Assembly: GCA_020852375.1 (NCBI GenBank)
Contig: JADZAY010000009.1
Span: 12,690 to 76,689 of the forward strand
Source of the DNA: Candidatus Yanofskybacteria bacterium
GTDB lineage: Bacteria > Patescibacteriota > Minisyncoccia > 2-02-FULL-40-12 > GWA2-44-9
Reading direction: 5' to 3'
DNA: 64,000 bases
The notes beneath the pieces were generated by a model. That model saw only the letters and a program-made list of their open reading frames with translations, had not been told where the DNA came from and made no database searches. Of the stretch, positions 1 to 45,912 are shown one piece after another. Within the stretch, counting starts at the first letter, position 1, and the number at the start of each line of letters is the position of its first letter. A program made the position numbers and the translations under genes.

Positions 1-297
1 GAACCGCTCACGAATTTCCCACGTCGCAGCACCAAGAAATGTTACAACGAGCACCGCAATGCTTGATTGCCACCACGCAACCGCGCCTCCGAGGAACACG
101 AGTCCCGCCATGAGCATGTAGTGACGCTGCCAGGCGCGTCCCTGCAGGGGATGATGCGCCTCCCACGAGATCGTGCGCGGCGCCACAAGACCAGCGAACA
201 CCGACGCGCTTCCCGATTCGGGAGCAGCGGTTTCCGCCCCAACCGCCTCGTCGTTGATGGTCTCCGGATTCTTGAGATCAAGCACGTTGCTCATGCG
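1..297 (-). CDS. hypothetical membrane protein, 5' part only (continues past window start)
   Basis: ATG at 295-297 on the minus strand. The frame stays open to position 1, so it is absent from the ORF track (no stop in window). Translation MSNVLDLKNPETINDEAVGAETAAPESGSASVFAGLVAPRTISWEAHHPLQGRAWQRHYMLMAGLVFLGGAVAWWQSSIAVLVVTFLGAATW contains one hydrophobic helix. Confidence 0.4.
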
Positions 298-331
298 GGT
301 AGTATACCATCATTTTTCTCCGCCTCGGCTC

Positions 332-583
332 CTACCGATGCGGGCAACCGGCCCAACAGCACGGCCGCCGCATGCCTTTGCGCATCTTATCGAGACCAAC
401 CGCAATGCGCCGCTCGCGCGTTTCCGACTGCTTCGCGGAAGTTACCCAACAGATCCACTCATTGCGGGCGAGCGGCGTGATATCCGCCCACACACTCCGA
501 GCTTTCGGGTCCGACTCGATCGCCGCGCGAAGGTCCGCCGGCGCCTTGTGAACCGCGTTGTCCCGGATGCGTCGCCTCATTGG
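332..583 (-). CDS. YdeI/OmpD-associated (OmdA, DUF1801-like) family protein
   Basis: C-terminal motif PADLRAAIESDPKARSVWADITPLARNEWICWVTSAKQSETRERRIAV is typical of the family. Start taken at the internal Met (MRRRIRD) to limit overlap with the upstream gene; the true start is uncertain. Confidence 0.45.
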   Translation of the reverse strand, partial: PMRRRIRDNAVHKAPADLRAAIESDPKARSVWADITPLARNEWICWVTSAKQSETRERRIAVGLDKMRKGMRRPCCWAGCPHR

Positions 584-1068
584 GTGAGCGCTCCCGCCAG
601 CTTTTCGAGGCACTGCTCCATGCCCATCTTGGACATCTCGGCCATCTGTCCAGGCGCCCAACCTTTTTCCGTCACCGTAAGCCTGGTCCTACCATCACCG
701 AGGTCTTTGAATGTTACGATATGAATTTGGTTCTCGGGAAAATCGGATGGCATACCGACCGACGCAGGGGAGATTGTGTTTCCATCTTTATCCGCCAAGT
801 TGTGAACGTACTCTATCCGCTCCAGAGGAACAACCCGAAGATATCGCCACGTACTGTATTGCTCCGGAAATCCTAATTTTGGTGACGCCATACTGACAAG
901 CGAAACACCACCCTCACGGACATCCATCACAGCGGTCGGACACTCAAAATTGTCCGGGCCCCACCACTGCCGCAGCGCGTCAGACTCTGTCCAGGCGCGC
1001 CACACCTTCGCAACGGGCGCGTCGAACGTGTGAGTGAATACAAGGTCTTGCGTTGGCGCGTTCGTCAT
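577..1068 (-). CDS. SRPBCC superfamily protein, AHSA1 (activator of Hsp90 ATPase) domain
   Basis: 163 aa; MTNAPTQDLVFTHTFDAPVAKVWRAWTESDALRQWWGP is a typical AHSA1/SRPBCC N-terminus. Confidence 0.7.
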   Translation of the reverse strand: MTNAPTQDLVFTHTFDAPVAKVWRAWTESDALRQWWGPDNFECPTAVMDVREGGVSLVSMASPKLGFPEQYSTWRYLRVVPLERIEYVHNLADKDGNTISPASVGMPSDFPENQIHIVTFKDLGDGRTRLTVTEKGWAPGQMAEMSKMGMEQCLEKLAGALTQ

Positions 1069-1301
1069 ATGGTTATGATGGTGATTTCACTCTCAATTTG
1101 GCGGGCAGGATTGCCGGAACTTTGAACCGGCAAAACGAATAAATTTCGGTTTAGTTGATAAAAGTATACAGAAATTAAGGAAGATTTACAGAGAAAAACC
1201 AGAATGGTTTGAAATTCCCGATTTTGCTCAAAAAGTCTACTGAATATCAAAATGTCTAACCGAAGTGAGAAAAATTCTCACTTCCATTGCACAAACTGCA
1301 T

Positions 1302-2186
1302 TTATGACCCCTCGTGAGGCCACTGGCCTCGAGCGACCATGTTAATGGAAGTAATATGGGCATCAGAAGTGAGAATACTTACAATTGCCTTTCCAACTGC
1401 CGAAGGGGGTGTACAAAAAAGGTTTGTTTTTGAGTAGTCATAGCCAAAATTCTTACCCATCATTGAAACTGTATTCTGAACCACCCTTGAGTCATACATA
1501 CCAGTATCTACAATCCCTGGTCTTACATCTGTAATAAAAATTTTATCTTTATCGAGTTCAATCATTGCCGCGTTGGTAAAACGGCTGATTGAGCCTTTGG
1601 CGGCCATGTGCATACTTCCAGAAACAACAGAACGGATCGCGCTCATTGAGGAAACGATGCAAACTCGAGTTTCTTTTTGTTTACGGAATCGCGGAAGTAA
1701 CAAGCGCAATAAACTTACGGTGTTTTTTAAAACTGAAAGTTCTGCTTCGATTAATTCTTCAGATAAATCATCGATGAGCAAATACGGATTGTCGTCTTTG
1801 AGTTGAACCGTTCCCGCGCCCAATCCGACTGACTGAACCCAATACAGTGGCAGGTCGTTTGGAATTGATTCAACTAATTTTTCCAGAGCCGATATATTAC
1901 CCAAATCAACAGCAGAATATTCTACTTTTGCTCCAGAAATTTTTTCTTCTATCCATTTCTTAACAATCTGCAATTTGCTTTCAGTGCGAGCTACGATATG
2001 AACAATGGCACCAGCTTTGGCGCATTCAAACGCTGTGGCGGCACCAATATTTGCCTTGTATTCTTTTCCATCAATATCAACTAAAGTGTGCGACGGTTCG
2101 CCGGTCGTTATGTCTTTAAAAACAAAATCGACCGGTTTTATTCCAACTCCTGTTATGAGAATTCTTTTGTTGTTTAGATTATTCAT
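1302..2186 (-). CDS. short-chain dehydrogenase/reductase (SDR) family oxidoreductase, atypical
   Basis: Rossmann motif IGAATAFECAKAGAIVHIVAR and a PG..DT motif (RPGIVDTGM). The catalytic YxxxK appears replaced by HMAAK. The gene is markedly AT-rich relative to its surroundings. Confidence 0.65.
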   Translation of the reverse strand: MNNLNNKRILITGVGIKPVDFVFKDITTGEPSHTLVDIDGKEYKANIGAATAFECAKAGAIVHIVARTESKLQIVKKWIEEKISGAKVEYSAVDLGNISALEKLVESIPNDLPLYWVQSVGLGAGTVQLKDDNPYLLIDDLSEELIEAELSVLKNTVSLLRLLLPRFRKQKETRVCIVSSMSAIRSVVSGSMHMAAKGSISRFTNAAMIELDKDKIFITDVRPGIVDTGMYDSRVVQNTVSMMGKNFGYDYSKTNLFCTPPSAVGKAIVSILTSDAHITSINMVARGQWPHEGS

Positions 2187-2289
2187 AACCTGGTTCGAAT
2201 CCCTTCGGGGTTAACCTCATTTTATCAAAATTCTTTTTCAAAAAGTAGCGTAAAATAAGGATTTTCTACTTCTCATTTTTCAAAATTAC

Positions 2290-2377
2290 TGGCGGAGGGG
2301 GTGGGATTCGAACCCACGATCCCTTACGGGATGCCGCATTTCAAGTGCGGTGGAATAAACCACTATCCGACCCCTCC
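2290..2377 (-). tRNA. tRNA-Ser (anticodon TGA), long variable arm, CCA encoded
   Basis: Cloverleaf read by eye on the minus strand: acceptor GGAGGGG/CCCCTCC, anticodon loop cTTGAaa read as UGA, long variable arm, 3' CCA present. Confidence 0.8.
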
Positions 2378-2383
2378 ATTCGC

Positions 2384-2755
2384 CTACGCTATCCGCTTCC
2401 TCAGCCAGCTTCTCTCTAGATAGTGTTCTTCATAATGACAGTTCGGGCAGATCAATGCCAGATTTGCGAGATCATTATTACTCCTATCTCTGTCTTTATG
2501 ATGCACTTGCAAGATCTCTGGCTTGTCGTATCCGCACCGCTCACAAGTGCGCCCTCGTTCTCGCAAAAGCCGCATCTTCAGGGCCTTGAGCGCCGTCACC
2601 TTATCTCTTGGCCTATTCAGTTTATACCGTATACCAGCTCGCTGCTTGTTCGCGCATCTCTTGCTACAGGTCTTCTTGTTATCCCCAGACAGAATGGAAG
2701 CACCGCATACGGGGCAGAGGATCTCCTTCCTGCAAGATATGCCGTAGCAAGTCAT
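2384..2755 (-). CDS. HNH endonuclease (zinc-ribbon N-terminus)
   Basis: C-terminal HNH motif CERCGYDKPEILQVHHKDRDRSNNDLANLALICPNCH. The ORF-track extension to 3025 runs through tRNA-Ser(CGA) and is rejected. Start set at Met 2755, but a non-ATG start up to about 2830 (adding a CLVC..C Zn motif) is possible. Confidence 0.7.
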   Translation of the reverse strand: MTCYGISCRKEILCPVCGASILSGDNKKTCSKRCANKQRAGIRYKLNRPRDKVTALKALKMRLLRERGRTCERCGYDKPEILQVHHKDRDRSNNDLANLALICPNCHYEEHYLERSWLRKRIA

Positions 2756-2935
2756 ACTACAGAACGCTCGTCCGCCAGCTCTCTGCAACTCGACCGGGCG
2801 ACGGTATATCGGCGCAGCGCACACAAGGCAAGCAGTATTCGGCTTTCTTTGATATGGCTCGACCACCCATCCACTATACCATTTCGGAGGAGAATTGCCA
2901 AAAAACCAAATAATGATATACTTTTCTCCGCACAC

Positions 2936-3022
2936 GGAGGCGTGGCAGAGTGGTCTAACGCGCCGCACTCGAAATGCGGTTGGGGAGAAATCCCCTCGGA
3001 GGTTCGAATCCTCCCGCCTCCG
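2936..3022 (+). tRNA. tRNA-Ser (anticodon CGA), long variable arm
   Basis: Acceptor GGAGGCG/CGCCTCC, anticodon loop ctCGAaa, long variable arm, T-arm GGAGGttcgaatCCTCC. Confidence 0.85.
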
Positions 3023-3024
3023 CA

Positions 3025-3192
3025 AATGATCTTCGGAATGCCGTTTGGCATTGTGAAGATCATCCGCAAGAGATGTGGGGGATTCGAAGGGCGGACCGCT
3101 GCGACATCAGCTGATGTCGCCGGGAGCCCGTGCCCAGGCCGAGGCGAGCGACGGCGAGCCGAGAGCCGAGGGAGAATCCTCCCGCCTCCGCA
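3025..3192 (+). repeat. tRNA-3'-linked structured repeat (hairpin + GC-rich core + 19-bp copy of tRNA-Ser 3' end)
   Basis: Hairpin 3029-3062; core GGGGGATTCGAAGGGCGG..CGACATCAGCTGATGTCGCC..GGCCGAGGCGAGCGACGGCGAGCCGAGAG. GAATCCTCCCGCCTCCGCA at 3174-3192 is an exact copy of tRNA 3006-3024. Confidence 0.6.
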
Positions 3193-3210
3193 GTCAGATA
3201 AGGAGGTTCC

Positions 3211-3402
3211 GTGGCGACATTGCTGTTGGACGACATGGACGACGACACGCGCCGCTTGCTCACCGAGCGAAGGCGGTACTCGTGCGGCCACTGCCAGAGC
3301 CGCTGGGAAACGCCTGCGTTCCAAAGCTCGACGGAGTGCCCGTCGTGCGGCGGACACTGGATCATCTTCGAGACCGTGCCGGACACTCAATGGGACCCGT
3401 AA
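3211..3402 (+). CDS. small zinc-ribbon protein (63 aa), hypothetical
   Basis: GTG start 4 nt after AGGAGG (3201-3206). CxxC..CxxC (CGHCQSRW...CPSCGGHW). Stop lies inside a strong terminator hairpin. Confidence 0.4.
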   Translation: MATLLLDDMDDDTRRLLTERRRYSCGHCQSRWETPAFQSSTECPSCGGHWIIFETVPDTQWDP

Positions 3403-3416
3403 GGGTCCCGTTTTTC
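3392..3416. terminator. Rho-independent terminator (bidirectional)
   Basis: GGGACCC-gtaa-GGGTCCC followed by GTTTTT. Lies between the convergent small ORF and the LOG gene. Confidence 0.6.
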
Positions 3417-3425
3417 TATTCACTA

Positions 3426-4154
3426 TTAGTAGTAGATCTCCTTGCGAGGAGGCGATGCTTTGATGATATCGAACGCCTCCTGCGCAGTGTCGACGAGATG
3501 GTAAAGTTGCATATCTTCTTTGTCGATCGCCCGGTACCGCTCGTACACCATGTCGTTGATGTAGGAAAGCAGGGGAGTCCAGAACTCTTTGCCGATCAGG
3601 ATGAGCGGCACGGTATCGCGGTCGACTTTCTTGGTCTGAACCAATGTGACCAGCTCGAAGAACTCGTCGAGCGTTCCGAATCCGCCGGGGAAGAACACAT
3701 ACGCCTGCGCAGTGTAGAAGAGCATGACCTTCCGGACAAAGAAATAATAGAAGGGCTGCTTCTTGGTAAGATACGGGTTCTCGCGCTGCTCGAACGGGAG
3801 CTTGATGTTGATGCCGATGCTCTCCCCACCGGCCTCGAACGCGCCGCGGTTACCACCCTCCATGATGCCCGGCCCGCCGCCGGTCACAACACCGATCTTC
3901 GCTTTCGCGAGCAAGACGCCCAGCTCCCGCGCGACTTGATACCACTTATTCGTCTCCTCGAATCGAGCGGAGCCCAGAATGGAAACGGTGTTCTTGTAAT
4001 CGGTGACGAACTGCCATCCGTCGACGAACTCCGCCATGATGCGAAAGACGCGCCAGTGGAAGCTGGAACGAAAGTCGAGCGGCATGTCCTGCGCCTGCTC
4101 CCATGGCAGCTTCGACGCCGGAACATTGAGCGAGCCTTTTGGATCGTCTCCCAT
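3426..4154 (-). CDS. LOG family protein (cytokinin riboside 5'-monophosphate phosphoribohydrolase / lysine decarboxylase-like)
   Basis: Motifs GVVTGGGPGIMEGGNRGA and PGGFGTLDEFFE. Start at internal Met (MGDDPKG), because the upstream extension lacks homology. Confidence 0.85.
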   Translation of the reverse strand: MGDDPKGSLNVPASKLPWEQAQDMPLDFRSSFHWRVFRIMAEFVDGWQFVTDYKNTVSILGSARFEETNKWYQVARELGVLLAKAKIGVVTGGGPGIMEGGNRGAFEAGGESIGINIKLPFEQRENPYLTKKQPFYYFFVRKVMLFYTAQAYVFFPGGFGTLDEFFELVTLVQTKKVDRDTVPLILIGKEFWTPLLSYINDMVYERYRAIDKEDMQLYHLVDTAQEAFDIIKASPPRKEIYY

Positions 4155-5245: not shown

Positions 5246-5383
5246 GGGATCCTCCTGCGCGGTGCGCCCTATCACAGAGCGGAGATCCGCGCCGACCCTC
5301 GTGGCACGCATGATCGCATGCCGTCGCAACCTTACAAGTAGCCATTGTAGACGTCAACGCACCCGCCACTCGGGCGGGTGCGT

Positions 5384-5557
5384 GCTCTGTGGACCTACGG
5401 GGAGTCGGCCTCGCCTCTCGGCGCGCCGCCGCGCACCTCGGGCTGGCCACCGCCTCACGGTGCCGCCGACTGGCGGCACATCGCTCCGGCGTTCGTCTCC
5501 CCGTATATATTCGCTGTAGCAATACGGACAACCCTTGAGGGTTGTCCGTATTGCTCT
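5384..5557 (-). repeat. tRNA-3'-linked structured repeat (24-bp copy of tRNA-Ala 3' end + core + hairpin)
   Basis: GCTCTGTGGACCTACGGGGAGTCG at 5384-5407 duplicates 5553-5576. Minus-strand core ACGGGGAGACGAACGCCGGAGCGATGTGCCGCC..GAGGCGGTGGCCAGCCCGAGGTGCGCGGCGGCGCGCCGAGAGGCGAGGCC. Hairpin 5519-5554. Confidence 0.6.
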
Positions 5558-9417: not shown

Positions 9418-9488
9418 GGGCCTGTAGTTAAGTGGTATAACGGCGCATTCGCATTGCGCAAGCGGGAGTTCGATTCTCCCCAGGTCCA
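9418..9488 (+). tRNA. tRNA-Ala (anticodon CGC)
   Basis: G3:U70. Anticodon loop ttCGCat. Confidence 0.85.
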
Positions 9489-9498
9489 CCGATTGCCC

Positions 9499-40424: not shown

Positions 40425-40555
40425 GGCCCGCTGTAGGGTTTGAAGCCCGGAGCGATGTGGCGGCAGCGGCCGACACCGCGAGGGCCGGAGCCCGGAGGCG
40501 GACGGCTCAGACCGGGGGCCGTTCGACCGGAGGGTGAATCCTACAGGGCGGACCA
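40425..40555 (+). repeat. tRNA-3'-linked structured repeat (core + 19-bp copy of tRNA-Lys 3' end)
   Basis: CTGTAGGGTTTGAAGCCCGGAGCGATGTGGCGGCAGC..GAGGGCCGGAGCCCGGAGG..GACCGGAGGGT, then GAATCCTACAGGGCGGACC 40536-40554, which equals 40357-40375. Followed by hairpin 40560-40590. Confidence 0.6.
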
Positions 40556-40597
40556 CATAAACCAAAACACCCCGCGAGGGGTGTTTTGGTTGAGGCC

Positions 40598-42238: not shown

Positions 42239-42322
42239 GCGCGGGTGGCGAAACTGGCAGACGCACTACCTTGAGGTGGTAGCGCCCGCAAGGGCATGGA
42301 GGTTCGAGTCCTCTCCCGCGCA
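42239..42322 (+). tRNA. tRNA-Leu (anticodon GAG), long variable arm
   Basis: Acceptor GCGCGGG/CCCGCGC. Anticodon loop ttGAGgt. Variable arm CGCCCGCAAGGGCAT. Confidence 0.85.
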
Positions 42323-42405
42323 CACTTGGCCACTCCTTATTCTGCATGTATGAAGGAAGTGGCTGGCCAAGTGTCCTGAGCGCATAGGCGCGAAGGACTA
42401 CAGTG
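42323..42405 (+). promoter_or_regulatory. conserved hairpin + -10 module (copy 1 of 3) upstream of tRNA-Val(GAC)
   Basis: CACTTGGCCACTCCTTATTCTGCATGTATGAAGGAAGTGGCTGGCCAAGTG hairpin, then TCCTGAGCGCATAGG..., then TACAGT 11 nt before the tRNA. Confidence 0.4.
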
Positions 42406-42478
42406 GTTGCGGTATGCGCGCTTAGCTCAGTTGGTAGAGCATCTCATTGACGTTGAGAGGGTCGTAGGTTCGAGTCCT
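42406..42478 (+). tRNA. tRNA-Val (anticodon GAC)
   Basis: Acceptor GCGCGCT/AGCGCGC. Anticodon loop ttGACgt. Confidence 0.85.
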
Positions 42479-42496: not shown

Positions 42497-42871
42497 TTAG
42501 TTTTTTAGTCTCTTCCCCCGATAGTGAGCCGCTTCGGCGAGGAATCGTTCGTCATCTTTTGTGCTATGCCTGACGGCGTGGCAATTCGCACAGAGAAGAG
42601 TGCATTTCAGGATCTCTGCCCGGATGCTCTCCCAGCTCTTGTTCGCGACATTACCGAGAGTGAAGTCTTTCTTTTGTGGATCAAGATGATGGAATTGAAG
42701 GGCGGCCTGATGGCCCCTCCAGCCACAATCCACGCACTTTCCGCCGAGGATGCGTATGGCAGCCGCCTTGGTTCGATAGCGCCGGATCTTGGTGTTGCAG
42801 GCCCCGCATCTGGCGCGCATTTTCCCCTGGTAATCGTTGTACTCTTTGCCGCATAGTTTACAGATCGTCAT
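42497..42871 (-). CDS. HNH endonuclease (free-standing, zinc-ribbon N-terminus)
   Basis: CKLCGKEY..CGAC N-terminus. HNH core CVDCGWRGHQAALQFHHLDP...LLCANCHAVRH. Paralogous in architecture to the HNH gene at 2384-2755. Confidence 0.75.
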   Translation of the reverse strand: MTICKLCGKEYNDYQGKMRARCGACNTKIRRYRTKAAAIRILGGKCVDCGWRGHQAALQFHHLDPQKKDFTLGNVANKSWESIRAEILKCTLLCANCHAVRHSTKDDERFLAEAAHYRGKRLKN

Positions 42872-42945
42872 GCCTTGAGTATAGCAAAATGCGCTCTACC
42901 AAGAGAGATTGCAGGGGGACGGATTTTGTGATACCGTATACACAT

Positions 42946-43223
42946 GCCGCGGTAGCTCAGTGGTAGAGCGCAGCCCTAAATCTTTGGGGCTTTCCGCAGG
43001 AATGCGGATTGAGAAATCGGGTGAATTCGGGGGAACTCCGGAACGGTCTGGACAATCCCGAGCCGAGCTCCGTGGGGTATCCAAAACGGAGAAGGTGTAG
43101 AGACTAGCGGGTGAGCCCAACAATACTCCCGCACAAGCGCCCGACCTCCAGAACGGAGGATGATATAGTCCAATTCAGCTTCGGAAGAGGCTGGCGTCGG
43201 GGGTTCAATTCCCTCCCGCGGCA
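42946..43223 (+). tRNA. intron-containing tRNA, most likely tRNA-Phe (anticodon GAA); exons 42946-42977 and 43184-43223
   Basis: 5' exon GCCGCGGTAGCTCAGTGGTAGAGCGCAGCCCT and 3' exon GAAGAGGCTGGCGTCGGGGGTTCAATTCCCTCCCGCGGCA together give a 72-nt cloverleaf with anticodon loop ctGAAga. Identity rests on the splice-junction assignment, including an unusual G37. Confidence 0.7.
42978..43183 (+). ncRNA. group I self-splicing intron (Azoarcus-type) in tRNA anticodon loop
   Basis: 206 nt. Internal guide GGGGCT (42986-42991) pairs with exon end AGCCCU with a U.G pair at the splice site. P2 hairpin CCGCAGGAATGCGG. Core GAAGGTGTAGAGACTAGCGGGTGAGCCC closely resembles the Azoarcus tRNA-Ile intron P7 region, with ATATAGTCC as the P7 3' strand. 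The intron ends in G. Confidence 0.75.
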
Positions 43224-43224
43224 C

Positions 43225-43267
43225 AAAGTAAACTAAAACCGCCCCTCAGGGCGGTTTTAGTTTACTT
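43225..43267. terminator. perfect 20-bp hairpin after tRNA-Phe
   Basis: AAAGTAAACTAAAACCGCCC-ctca-GGGCGGTTTTAGTTTACTTT. Confidence 0.5.
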
Positions 43268-43411
43268 TCCTGCTCGCGGCCGGGAATTGAAGGGCATCGA
43301 GCCGAGCGAACTGCTTCGCTCGGTGAGAGCCCGGGCTCCGGGGGAGCATCGAAGCGTCCGCCGAAGGCGGCTGCGAAGATGCGGAGGAGGAGAATTCCCT
43401 CCCGCGGCACA
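43268..43411 (+). repeat. tRNA-3'-linked structured repeat, unit 1 of tandem pair (divergent core + 19-bp copy of tRNA-Phe 3' end)
   Basis: AATTCCCTCCCGCGGCACA at 43393-43411 equals tRNA 43207-43225. 5' flank GCGGCCGGGAATTGAAGGGC is roughly complementary to the T-arm. Followed by hairpin 43414-43449. Confidence 0.55.
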
Positions 43412-43452
43412 GAAGCAAAAGCCGACCCCATGTGGGGCCGGTTTTTGCTTTT

Positions 43453-43588
43453 ACGTATCGTGGCGGGAGGGAATTGAACGCCGGAGCGATGCGGTATCAG
43501 CTGATATCGCCGCGAGGCGGTGGCCAGCCCGAGCGTCGCGACGGCGCCGCGAGAGGCGAGGCCAATGACTGACCCCTCCCGCGGCACC
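43453..43588 (+). repeat. tRNA-3'-linked structured repeat, unit 2 of tandem pair (canonical core)
   Basis: CGTGGCGGGAGGGAATTGAACGCCGGAGCGATGCGGTATCAGCTGATATCGCCGCGAGGCGGTGGCCAGCCCGAGCGTCGCGACGGCGCCGCGAGAGGCGAGGCC, then CCCTCCCGCGGCAC (a partial copy of the tRNA 3' end). Followed by hairpin 43595-43623. Confidence 0.6.
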
Positions 43589-43594
43589 GGTACA

Positions 43595-43631: not shown

Positions 43632-44048
43632 TTACTCGGTGGCAGCCTCTTCGGGTGCCGATTCCTCGGCCTCGACCGCTTTGGCGGCGACCGCCTCGGC
43701 GCGGGTCTTCTTGCGGATCTCCTTGGCGCTCTTCTCGCGGAGGTAGTACATCTTCGAGCGGCGGGTGCGGCCGGTCTTTACGACCTCAACCTTCTCGATG
43801 GAGGGGAGGCGGATGGGGTAGACCTTCTCGACGCCATATCCTCCGGCTGAGCGGCGAACGGTGATGGTGCCGCCGGCCTCGGTGCCATGCTTGCGGGCGA
43901 TGACGATACCCTCAAAAACGCTCGCCTTGCCCTTTTCGCCCTGCTTGAGCTTCTGGTGGACGCGAACGGTCATACCAACGGAAACACCCGTGAAGCGGTC
44001 TTCAGGGTTATGCTTTGCCGAGAATGCAGAAATGACGTGTTGAGACAT
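43632..44048 (-). CDS. rplS: 50S ribosomal protein L19 (with Ala/Glu-rich C-terminal extension)
   Basis: Core RFTGVSVGMTVRVHQKL..GIVIARKHGTEAGGTITVRRSAGGYGVEKVYPIRLPSIEKVEVV. Confidence 0.9.
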   Translation of the reverse strand: MSQHVISAFSAKHNPEDRFTGVSVGMTVRVHQKLKQGEKGKASVFEGIVIARKHGTEAGGTITVRRSAGGYGVEKVYPIRLPSIEKVEVVKTGRTRRSKMYYLREKSAKEIRKKTRAEAVAAKAVEAEESAPEEAATE

Positions 44049-45221: not shown

Positions 45222-45330
45222 TGGCGGAATTATTGTAACTCTCCGCGCCTGCCTGCCGGTAGGCAGGCCCATGCGCTCGGGGCACTTGGCCAGCCACCCC
45301 CTTCATACATGCAGGATAAGGAATGGCTAA
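45222..45330 (-). promoter_or_regulatory. conserved hairpin + TACAAT module (copy 2 of 3) upstream of the NUDIX gene
   Basis: Minus-strand reading: CACTTAGCCATTCCTTATCCTGCATGTATGAAGGGGGTGGCTGGCCAAGTG hairpin, then CCCCGAGCGCATGGG.., GCCTGCC-hairpin, then GAGAGT-TACAAT-AATTCC. ATG 40 nt downstream. Confidence 0.4.
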
Positions 45331-45332
45331 GT

Positions 45333-45455
45333 GTGGGCGGTAGAGGACTCGGCTTTGTCTCTCGCGTCGCCGTTGCGACGCTCGGATTAGCCACCGCCTC
45401 GCGGCGCCACCTACTGGCGGCGCATCGCTCCGGCGTTCGAGCCTCTACCATTCGC
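45333..45455 (-). repeat. tRNA-3'-linked structured repeat (core + 19-bp copy of tRNA-Val(TAC) 3' end)
   Basis: Minus-strand reading: GGTAGAGGCTCGAACGCCGGAGCGATGCGCCGCCAGTAGGTGGCGCCGCGAGGCGGTGGCTAATCCGAGCGTCGCAACGGCGACGCGAGAGACAAAGCCGAGTCCTCTACCGCCCACAC. The 19-bp copy at 45333-45351 equals 45502-45520. Hairpin 45457-45500 separates it from the tRNA. Confidence 0.6.
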
Positions 45456-45576: not shown

Positions 45577-45660
45577 GAATTATTGTAGCCCCGCGAACCC
45601 ATGTTCTCGGGACACTTCGCCAGCCAACTCCTTCATACATACAGAATAAGGAGTGGCGAA
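45577..45660 (-). promoter_or_regulatory. conserved hairpin + TACAAT module (copy 3 of 3) upstream of tRNA-Val(TAC)
   Basis: Minus-strand reading: CACTTCGCCACTCCTTATTCTGTATGTATGAAGGAGTTGGCTGGCGAAGTG hairpin, TCCCGAGAACATGGG.., then GGGGC-TACAAT-AATTCC directly abutting the tRNA 5' end. Confidence 0.45.
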
Positions 45661-45790
45661 GTGTGGGGGGAGCCTGGATTCACCCTCCGGTCAGGCCTGC
45701 GCCGTCGCTTGGCCTGCCTTCGGGCTCCGGCCCTCACGGTCGCGCCTGCTGGCGCGACATCGCTCCGGGCTTCGAATCCTATCACTCCAA
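45661..45790 (-). repeat. tRNA-3'-linked structured repeat (Lys-type core + diverged copy of tRNA-Ile 3' end)
   Basis: Minus-strand reading: GATAGGATTCGAAGCCCGGAGCGATGTCGCGCCAGCAGGCGCGACCGTGAGGGCCGGAGCCCGAAGG..GACCGGAGGGTGAATCCAGGCTCCCCCCACAC. Hairpin 45791-45836 separates it from tRNA-Ile. Confidence 0.55.
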
Positions 45791-45838
45791 CTACTACTTG
45801 AAACCGACCCGCCGCAGGGGCGGCTCGATTTCAAGATG

Positions 45839-45912
45839 TGGGGGAGCTAGGATTCGAACCTAGGACCACCAAGGTATAAGCTTGGCGCTCTAACCAGCTG
45901 AGCTACTCCCCC
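45839..45912 (-). tRNA. tRNA-Ile (anticodon TAT)
   Basis: Reverse complement folds as GGGGGAG-UA-GCUC..CCAAG-CUUAUAC-CUUGG..CUCCCCC-A. The loop CUUAUAC gives anticodon UAU, which is unusual. Confidence 0.7.

Follow-up and report, generated by a model that had tools for sequence, protein, structure and literature searches.

The stretch of DNA analysed here, referred to throughout as the window, comprises 64,000 nucleotides (nt) of contig JADZAY010000009.1 from a Candidatus Yanofskybacteria bacterium, and our subject is a short structured-RNA element inserted behind one of its tRNA genes. This gene, an intact tRNA-Ser(CGA) at positions 2936-3023 of the plus strand (ARAGORN; 54.9 bits with the Rfam tRNA model), is the host and target of the element, and its 3' end occurs twice. 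The 19-mer GAATCCTCCCGCCTCCGCA has exactly two exact copies in the window: a proximal one at 3006-3024 (plus strand, X(up)), running from G57 in the T-loop of the tRNA to discriminator +2, and a distal one at 3174-3192 (plus strand, X(down)), which belongs to no tRNA according to ARAGORN and Rfam. An earlier, sequence-only reading of the locus had pointed to this duplication of the tRNA 3' end; the repeat is indeed exact and lies where it was placed, and none of 100 shuffled sequences contained two matches to the 19-mer with up to three mismatches allowed. The 149-nt insert between the repeat copies holds no open reading frame (ORF). The 168 bases at 3025-3192 are one element insertion, composed of an element of about 150 bp and a 19-bp target duplication.

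The element is followed by a small zinc (Zn)-ribbon ORF, with which it shares a putative transcription unit. A sigma-70-like promoter precedes the tRNA gene (2895-2922, plus strand; consensus scan, 10 of 12 hexamer matches) and probably drives the whole unit of tRNA, element and ORF. The latter (3211-3402, plus strand) encodes 63 amino acids with a CxxC..CxxC pattern and a sub-threshold DUF7129-like match, starts with GTG at 3211 behind an AGGAGG ribosome-binding site (RBS) at 3201-3206, and its product is 100% identical to a protein annotated as IT406_02185 in a Candidatus Yanofskybacteria metagenome-assembled genome. An intrinsic terminator at 3389-3412 (plus strand) closes the unit and is its sole terminator-like site; the hairpin P0 at the start of the tRNA-Ser copy of the element lacks a U-tract, so that read-through into the ORF is possible. 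The ORF, its RBS and its terminator had all been recognised correctly in the earlier reading.

Anatomy and fold of the element

In each copy of the element, the 3' end of the host gene (X) is followed by the hairpin P0, a segment complementary to X (X'), a GC-rich core and a second X, after which a terminator hairpin usually comes. X', the core and the downstream X fold as a three-way junction, the same in every copy, with the helices P1 (formed by X' and the initial 7-17 nt of the downstream X), P2 and P3. Behind tRNA-Ser(CGA), where all parts lie on the plus strand, the minimum free energy fold gives P0 as a 5'-terminal hairpin of 38 nt at 3026-3063, at which no terminator is called; a P0 hairpin is present in every copy. 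The folds place X' (TGGGGGATTC) together with a conserved GAA at 3076-3088, where this guide-like segment is the 5' strand of P1 and is complementary to the T-loop and the T-stem 3' strand of the tRNA. The first nine bases of X(down) form the 3' strand of P1, and its remainder, a copy of the acceptor 3' strand, is unpaired when the element is folded alone.

P2 occupies 3089-3129 (alignment and covariation) and includes the palindromic hairpin CGACATCAGCTGATGTCG at 3102-3119; a hairpin, a GC-rich core and a palindromic stem between the repeat copies had been noted earlier, and all are present, the stem being P2. In its family form, P2 leads from a 4-bp base through a GGA/GA internal loop to a 3-bp helix and, beyond a 2-nt bulge, ends in an 8-bp hairpin whose AGNN loop is closed by C-G. 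The tRNA-Ser copy departs from this consensus by double substitutions that keep all helices (base GGGC/GCCC for CGCC/GGCG, 3-bp helix CCG/CGG for GCG/CGC), with the GGA/GA internal loop, the 2-nt bulge and the 8-bp hairpin in place and the loop AGCU closed by C-G. P3, at 3133-3172 (alignment, covariation and fold), is a CCC..GGG helix with a GA/GA internal loop and the hairpin loop GACGG, and GA/GA loops with a GACGG hairpin loop are also its family form.

The fold was assessed on an alignment of 44 copies, which is also the basis of the covariance model used below. Compensatory changes were present in 23 of the 30 predicted pairs, and 95.0% of the cells were paired, against 37-47% when partners were slid by one to three columns; the covariation score was 0.506, against 0.08-0.11 for slid partners, and none of 500 shuffles attained the observed values. 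G.U combinations outnumbered A.C combinations in the core helices (29 vs 8), an indication that the RNA is read in the direction of the tRNA. On the evidence of this alignment, the conserved core is a structured RNA with covarying pairs, encoded on the tRNA strand, and its predicted fold is strongly supported. The fold of the tRNA-Ser copy has a z-score of -5.46. When tRNA and element are folded as a whole transcript (-139.9 kcal/mol, z = -6.85), the tRNA body is predicted to pair with the distal repeat and the proximal copy with X', so that the two repeat copies would be interchangeable in the RNA and brought together by its structure.

Rfam 15 gave no family on any copy at E-values up to 10 beyond chance-level matches. 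Gathering scores were attained only by tRNAs and one group I intron; the intron models of Rfam did not match the element, whose core is only about 85 nt long. Full-text searching of the literature returned no description of the element either and, as far as Rfam and such searching show, this RNA family has not been described previously. Other identities were tried and rejected: a tRNA-like gene on the minus strand (the acceptor halves are unpaired, and the G.U pairs favour the plus, tRNA, strand), an archaeal bulge-helix-bulge splice motif (the junction geometry is unfit), and a retroviral-type primer-binding site in which X' would face a tRNA 3' end with CCA (the complementarity is to T-loop and T-stem, rarely to the acceptor strand or CCA).

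Distribution of the element and its empty sites

The recognition of the insert as a member of a repeat family was borne out by the covariance model, which finds seven copies in the window, all behind tRNA genes and with a common layout, that of tRNA-Ser(CGA) scoring highest (123.7 bits, E = 1e-39). They occupy 6 of the 16 tRNA genes of the window (about 40%), and the core motif CCGGAGCGATG-N6-CAG-N9-CCGYGAGG has five exact matches there. Single copies with a direct repeat lie behind tRNA-Ala(GGC) (5378-5511, minus strand; 117 bits; 25-nt repeat), tRNA-Lys(CUU) (40425-40564, plus strand; 53.2 bits; 19-nt repeat) and tRNA-Val(UAC) (45322-45455, minus strand; 115.6 bits; 19-nt repeat), and one with a decayed repeat behind tRNA-Ile(UAU) (45653-45790, minus strand; 72.8 bits). 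The remaining two form a tandem pair behind an intron-containing tRNA, the first being a diverged copy (43272-43421, plus strand; 16.6 bits, E = 0.002) with a 19-nt repeat at 43207-43225 and 43393-43411, and the second scoring 111.6 bits (43459-43592, plus strand).

Searching contigs of one genome per species for the core motif yielded at least 118 matches. The core-bearing contigs, likewise at least 118, are nearly all labelled Patescibacteria (Candidate Phyla Radiation), among them Kaiser-, Yanofsky-, Uhr-, Nomura-, Morani-, Falkow- and Taylorbacteria and Paceibacterota, a few pipeline labels being probably unreliable. The core pattern had no match in 2.9 million viral contigs, and viral carriage of the element was rejected on that ground. 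Among the matches listed, 83 of 124 copies lie at most 130 nt downstream of a same-strand tRNA, with 19 amino-acid identities represented, and 47 of these 83 tRNA-linked copies have an exact repeat of at least 15 nt. The other copies follow protein genes or 3' ends resembling those of transfer-messenger RNA (tmRNA). The two tmRNA-like sites, in loci L062 (7200-7500, plus strand; 22-nt repeat) and L106 (minus strand; 17-nt repeat), consist of a T-arm and acceptor end (..CATCTCCACAA), in which ARAGORN recognises no tRNA and which may be the 3' end of a tmRNA. Two further copies (L010 and L028) have the same small basic protein gene upstream, and another (L002) has a 33-nt repeat. The elements form a large, ORF-less, non-autonomous and Patescibacteria-specific family. 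Three loci (L014, L097 and L098) have a common motif, ATGTTCGAACTTCGYTCAAAAAACACCGC, 100-250 nt upstream of the core match, and tRNA-Ser-like 3' arms with no upstream tRNA detected; L097 is a scrambled tandem array.

An unoccupied tRNA-Ser site, which the sequence-only reading had proposed to look for in related genomes, was found. Yanofskybacteria SJ168 (L119) carries a homologue of the Zn-ribbon protein (78% identical) in a neighbourhood syntenic with the window, the shared order being tRNA-Ser(UGA), tRNA-Ser(CGA), Zn-ribbon ORF, LOG-family gene, tRNA-Ala, tRNA-Arg, CCA-adding enzyme, tRNA-Pro and UvrD, and has elements behind Ser-CGA, Ser-UGA and Pro-CGG. Three short contigs (L120, L121 and L122), each obtained in a sequencing run of its own, are 100.000% identical to L119 over 2289, 2087 and 1339 nt, and their sole differences from it are 153 nt gone at tRNA-Ser(UGA) and 152 nt gone at tRNA-Ser(CGA), both precisely. 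The empty sites, which contain no element, keep one repeat copy each, of 20 nt at Ser-UGA and 19 nt at Ser-CGA. The whole unit is gained or lost precisely, and its loss leaves a single repeat copy.

Occupancy varies from gene to gene between the window, L119 and the loci L091/L073. Ser-CGA is occupied in all of them; Ser-UGA is empty in the window and occupied in L119 and L091/L073; Ala-GGC is occupied in the window (and in L042) and empty in L119 and L091/L073; Ala-CGC is empty in the window and L119 and occupied in L091/L073; Pro-CGG is empty in the window and occupied in L119. The stretch downstream of tRNA-Ser(UGA) in the window (2290-2377, minus strand) is AT-rich, has a short-chain dehydrogenase gene and is without the element that relatives have there. 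Two inversions in place relative to the flanking protein genes (LOG-family gene, UvrD) were also seen, one of tRNA-Ser(CGA) with its element (L091 3916-4003 vs window 2936-3023) and one of tRNA-Ala(CGC) (L073 5881-5953 vs window 9418-9490).

At the empty Ser-CGA site, the tRNA with its encoded CCA is followed by 21 nt and then by the same RBS and Zn-ribbon ORF; being unchanged there, the ORF is a resident gene of the locus and not cargo of the element. The idea that such an ORF might recur beside other copies did not hold, as none was found at the other window copies or in L091, and a role of the ORF as cargo or partner was rejected, given its presence at the empty site and its absence both beside other copies and downstream of the orthologous element in L091. 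The CxxC ORF upstream of tRNA-Ser in L091 has no significant similarity to it. Very probably, the insert behind tRNA-Ser(CGA) is a structured-RNA insertion element whose gain and loss involve the whole unit and to which the Zn-ribbon ORF is unrelated.

Further observations concern the surroundings of the copies in the window. The tRNA preceding the tandem pair (42946-43226, plus strand), probably Phe-GAA from an anticodon loop read by eye, is split by a group I intron (RF00028, 72.2 bits, 42968-43193) and was missed by ARAGORN. Directly upstream of it, a 132-aa ORF (42497-42895, minus strand) with a CxxC..CxxC pattern looks HNH-like by eye and may be of homing-endonuclease type. Downstream, a marginal covariance-model match at 43839-43954 (plus strand; 11.9 bits, E = 0.07) is probably due to chance; an ORF screen there picked only a minus-strand ORF reaching 43785. 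Another repeat family, a hairpin of about 75-100 nt (CACTTGGCCACTCCTTATTCTGCATGTATGAAGGAAGTGGCTGGCCAAGTG), is present at 42322-42412 (plus strand), 45598-45670 (minus strand) and 45268-45340 (minus strand), in copies 79-88% alike; at ..CACA|CTT these directly adjoin the 3' end of tRNA-Leu(GAG) or, in two cases, that of an element copy. The tRNA-Ile gene at 45838-45912 (minus strand), one of the 16 tRNA genes in 64 kb, has the anticodon UAU, an unusual bacterial means of reading AUA. G+C content is about 0.50-0.53 in positions 1-4000 of the window and 0.56-0.61 elsewhere.

The guide-like segment, the insertion step and alternative explanations

The repeats have one fixed edge. In type-A copies the left edge lies at C56/G57 of the T-loop, 17-21 nt before the tRNA end, and abuts the 3' end of P3 in the downstream copy, and the right edge lies anywhere between the tRNA end and a point more than 45 nt beyond it, giving repeat lengths of 18-66 nt. 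The short ones, including that of the tRNA-Ser copy, measure 18-25 nt and end at the tRNA end; the longest span the whole terminator of the tRNA (54 nt in L036, 55 nt in L056 and 66 nt in L092). In type-B copies, P3 is different and the duplication is limited to about 5-9 nt around the discriminator (CACAA). Tandem double insertions occur.

X' follows the tRNA behind which it lies. In two of the L119 insertions it is the exact complement of 9-11 nt of the tRNA (positions 56/57-66), and the mean energy of the X':tRNA duplex is -16.3 kcal/mol for cognate pairs against -9.9 for non-cognate ones. Among 31 cases with a diverged downstream repeat, the better partner of X' was the tRNA's own copy in 23 and the downstream copy in 3. 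At Ser-CGA, the T-stem of the tRNA is GGAGG/CCTCC in the window, where X(down) has CCTCC and X' has GGGGG, and GTAGG/CCTAC in L091, where X(down) has CCTAC and X' has GGTGGG. X' is specific for its own tRNA and stays matched to it even where the downstream repeat has decayed. This pattern suggests that X' is a guide kept matched to a constrained target, lying beside a passively decaying target duplication.

The explanation that we prefer, with a probability of roughly 0.6 for the whole, joins the structured-RNA insertion element to a guide function of X'. The element would be co-transcribed with the tRNA, here in the order promoter, tRNA, element, Zn-ribbon ORF and terminator. X' would serve as guide, the site being picked by base pairing with the tRNA-sense strand, as DNA or as transcript, at 55|56, where the 3' end of the element would be joined. 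With a second junction forming further downstream, at no fixed distance, the tRNA 3' end would be duplicated and the tRNA would survive intact. Loss would proceed by slippage or recombination between the repeats, aided by the fold that joins them, and the process as a whole would require an enzyme acting in trans or catalysis by the RNA itself. Taken separately, a guide-directed insertion step is a tentative proposal to which we give less than even odds. We are more doubtful still of its most specific form, in which the three-way-junction RNA would be the active part of a new RNA-guided mobile element, as a ribozyme or as the RNA subunit of a protein, with X' as a guide of 9-11 nt pairing with T-loop and T-stem and joining at 55|56. 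Retargeting by a few guide mutations would explain how one core comes to stand at about 19 tRNA identities, at tmRNA-like genes and at the ends of protein genes.

Several observations weigh against this explanation. The empty and occupied alleles give no direction, two precise deletions fitting L120 as well as two insertions fit L119, and the contigs with empty sites come from sequencing runs of unstated library type. Copies within one genome are only 46-85% identical and look mosaic; no near-identical pair at different sites, the hallmark of recent transposition, was seen among the copies, so there is no example of very recent copy-and-paste between sites. All-against-all clustering of the 895 ORFs within 2.5 kb of 118 loci revealed no recurrent protein family near the copies: no transposase, integrase or reverse transcriptase recurs, and the largest cluster covers 6 of the 118 loci. 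No ORF with a YxDD motif was found in the 64-kb window. The 37-nt core motif is conserved across many lineages of Patescibacteria, and such conservation characterises RNAs useful to the host more than purely selfish elements. Finally, X' is only about 70-90% complementary in some copies with exact repeats of 54-66 nt, and its imperfection beside such long repeats indicates that it was not copied from the target in the same event.

Some of these points lend themselves to an unlikely but serious alternative, that of a host-beneficial cis-acting RNA, for instance one for 3'-end processing, protection or termination of tRNAs and other highly expressed transcripts, with no dedicated mobility, whose repeats would stem from occasional local duplication and gene conversion and whose polymorphism would stem only from frequent slippage deletion between them. 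Both sequence and structure of the core are strongly conserved over many Patescibacteria lineages, copies are always in sense orientation directly behind tRNA, tmRNA-like or ribosomal-operon genes and between hairpins, and X' pairs with the tRNA's own 3' part. tRNA-Ser(CGA) is occupied in the window, L119 and L091, and identical patches among copies within a genome, such as a P2 hairpin common to two L119 copies and a P3 common to two L091 copies, suggest gene conversion; no mobility gene was found within 2.5 kb of the 118 loci. However, an essential processing role is hard to square with the occupation of only 6 of the 16 tRNA genes in the window by a set that differs between syntenic relatives, and a strain with identical flanks lacks the element at both Ser tRNAs. 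The presence at about 19 tRNA identities and at non-tRNA sites, each with matching X' and X, would still need a colonising route, and tandem double insertions also speak against a resident module.

We regard as improbable that the element is an intron-like or ribozyme element of the T-loop, that is, an RNA removed from the tRNA transcript at 55|56, or cleaving and ligating within it there, with the two repeat copies as alternative 3' exons. The whole-transcript fold, as predicted, does place a structured insertion in the T-loop of the tRNA, X' is reminiscent of an internal guide sequence, and the internal loops and bulges are conserved in sequence. At one locus (L031, 2000-2420, plus strand), moreover, a tRNA-Ser(GGA) has its T-loop split by spacer, X' and core and lacks the proximal repeat copy, and ARAGORN finds the tRNA only after removal of about 130 nt. 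This gene may be a pseudogene, as its lack of C56 indicates, or a primary insertion product, and it is the only 1 of 124 copies (among the matches listed) that interrupts a tRNA, whereas an intact tRNA lies upstream in 83 of the same 124, so that no splicing is needed there. When all copies lacking an upstream tRNA were spliced artificially and scanned with ARAGORN, L031 alone was recovered, and a general T-loop intron was rejected. No known intron or ribozyme model in Rfam matches, the junction strand beside the putative splice site is not conserved, and type-B and protein-gene copies involve no T-loop.

The sequence-only reading had likened the locus to the attL/attR pair of a classical tRNA-targeting integrative element, which would here be reduced to its attachment sites and moved by a tyrosine integrase encoded elsewhere. 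Part of this likeness stands, in that the tRNA 3' end bears a genuine insertion footprint with a clean empty site. As in many tRNA-integrating islands, the repeat starts at a constant point in the T-loop and stops at a varying one, at or past the tRNA 3' end; tmRNA-like genes are also targeted. An island of the integrase type is nevertheless very improbable. No integrase lies in or recurs near any copy (within 2.5 kb of the 118 loci), and one core serves about 19 tRNA identities and protein-gene ends, a range at odds with the site specificity of integrase families. What is conserved is an RNA fold with covariation and G.U pairs and not a set of protein-binding arm sites, the duplication in type-B copies is limited to about 5-9 nt at the discriminator, and the viral contigs contain no match.

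There is a negligible probability that the two 19-nt copies match by chance, through low complexity or because tRNA genes are alike: T-arms do resemble one another and nothing more speaks for it, against the shuffles, a second copy outside any tRNA, the same arrangement at other tRNAs of the window and in dozens of genomes, and the empty site.

Significance and comparison with known systems

The genomes of Patescibacteria are tiny, and nearly every intergenic base in them is accounted for. The element nonetheless fills the space behind about 40% of the tRNA genes of the window, and its core recurs across many lineages. If base-pair-guided mobility is true, it would constitute a minimal programmable insertion system and a new route of remodelling tRNA loci; if the element is instead a host device, it would represent an unrecognised step in the tRNA 3'-end biology of these organisms. 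Under either reading, it is a concrete RNA family missing from current databases. There is also a practical annotation problem, since duplicated tRNA 3' ends mimic the att sites of integrated islands.

Among the closest known systems are the genomic islands that integrate into tRNA and tmRNA genes, with their integrase-less derivatives, the cis-mobilizable elements (CIMEs). As in these, the insert is flanked by a direct repeat equal to the 3' part of a tRNA gene, the repeat starts in the T-loop and runs a variable distance past the gene so that the tRNA stays intact, empty and occupied alleles coexist, and tmRNA-like genes are hit as well. In contrast to them, the element measures only about 150 bp and has neither integrase nor cargo, its family spans about 19 tRNA identities and protein-gene ends, and it contains a covarying three-way-junction RNA with a locus-specific target-complementary segment.

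Miniature inverted-repeat transposable elements (MITEs) and other intergenic repeats (Correia/NEMIS, RUP, BOX, ERIC, REP/BIME) are, like the element, ORF-less, shorter than 300 bp and present in many copies per genome; they too are intergenic, strongly folded and subject to indel polymorphism between strains, and they are co-transcribed with their neighbours, as is proposed for the element. However, the terminal inverted repeats of MITEs are constant and come from an insertion sequence (IS), whereas the paired arms X' and X are derived from the target and differ at each locus, and the 5' hairpin is variable. The duplications made by MITEs have a fixed length of 2-10 bp, compared with 5-66 nt and one fixed edge here. 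The ends of MITEs are related to an autonomous IS; no parent IS of the element was seen, and no transposase was found near any of its copies (2.5 kb, 118 loci).

In group II introns, of which class C inserts after terminator hairpins, and in the IS200/IS605 family, a short internal guide pairs with the target strand, insertion takes place beside a hairpin at gene ends and a structured RNA component is involved, all of which recall the element. Unlike group II introns, the element has no group II core domains (Rfam negative), no reverse transcriptase was found for it and it needs no splicing. A long target duplication distinguishes it from both systems, as does a guide of 9-11 nt that pairs downstream of the junction. 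Self-splicing introns in general have an internal guide that pairs with flanking sequence; X' has this property, and the resemblance is one of principle only. The guide arrays of the TIGR-Tas systems of parasitic bacteria, with 36-nt units of alternating 8-12-nt repeats and 9-nt spacers (PMC12045711), were considered as relatives and rejected, the unit layout being unrelated.

Elements of the short interspersed nuclear element (SINE) type, which spread by target-primed reverse transcription as non-LTR (long terminal repeat) retrotransposons do, share with the element a non-autonomous nature, a structured 3' region and a duplication whose edge at the 3' end of the element is fixed while the other is variable. 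Like the retroelements that target tRNA genes in compact eukaryotic genomes, the element uses tRNA genes as safe sites. It differs from all of these in being bacterial, in having no A-rich tail and no reverse transcriptase found in the window or near its copies, in inserting directly at the tRNA 3' end or within it, with no intervening distance, and in having a target-complementary guide. To our knowledge, the conserved covarying RNA fold, the locus-specific target-complementary segment and the long target duplication with a fixed T-loop edge are not known together from any other system. With this combination, the element takes its place among the non-autonomous insertion elements at tRNA genes.

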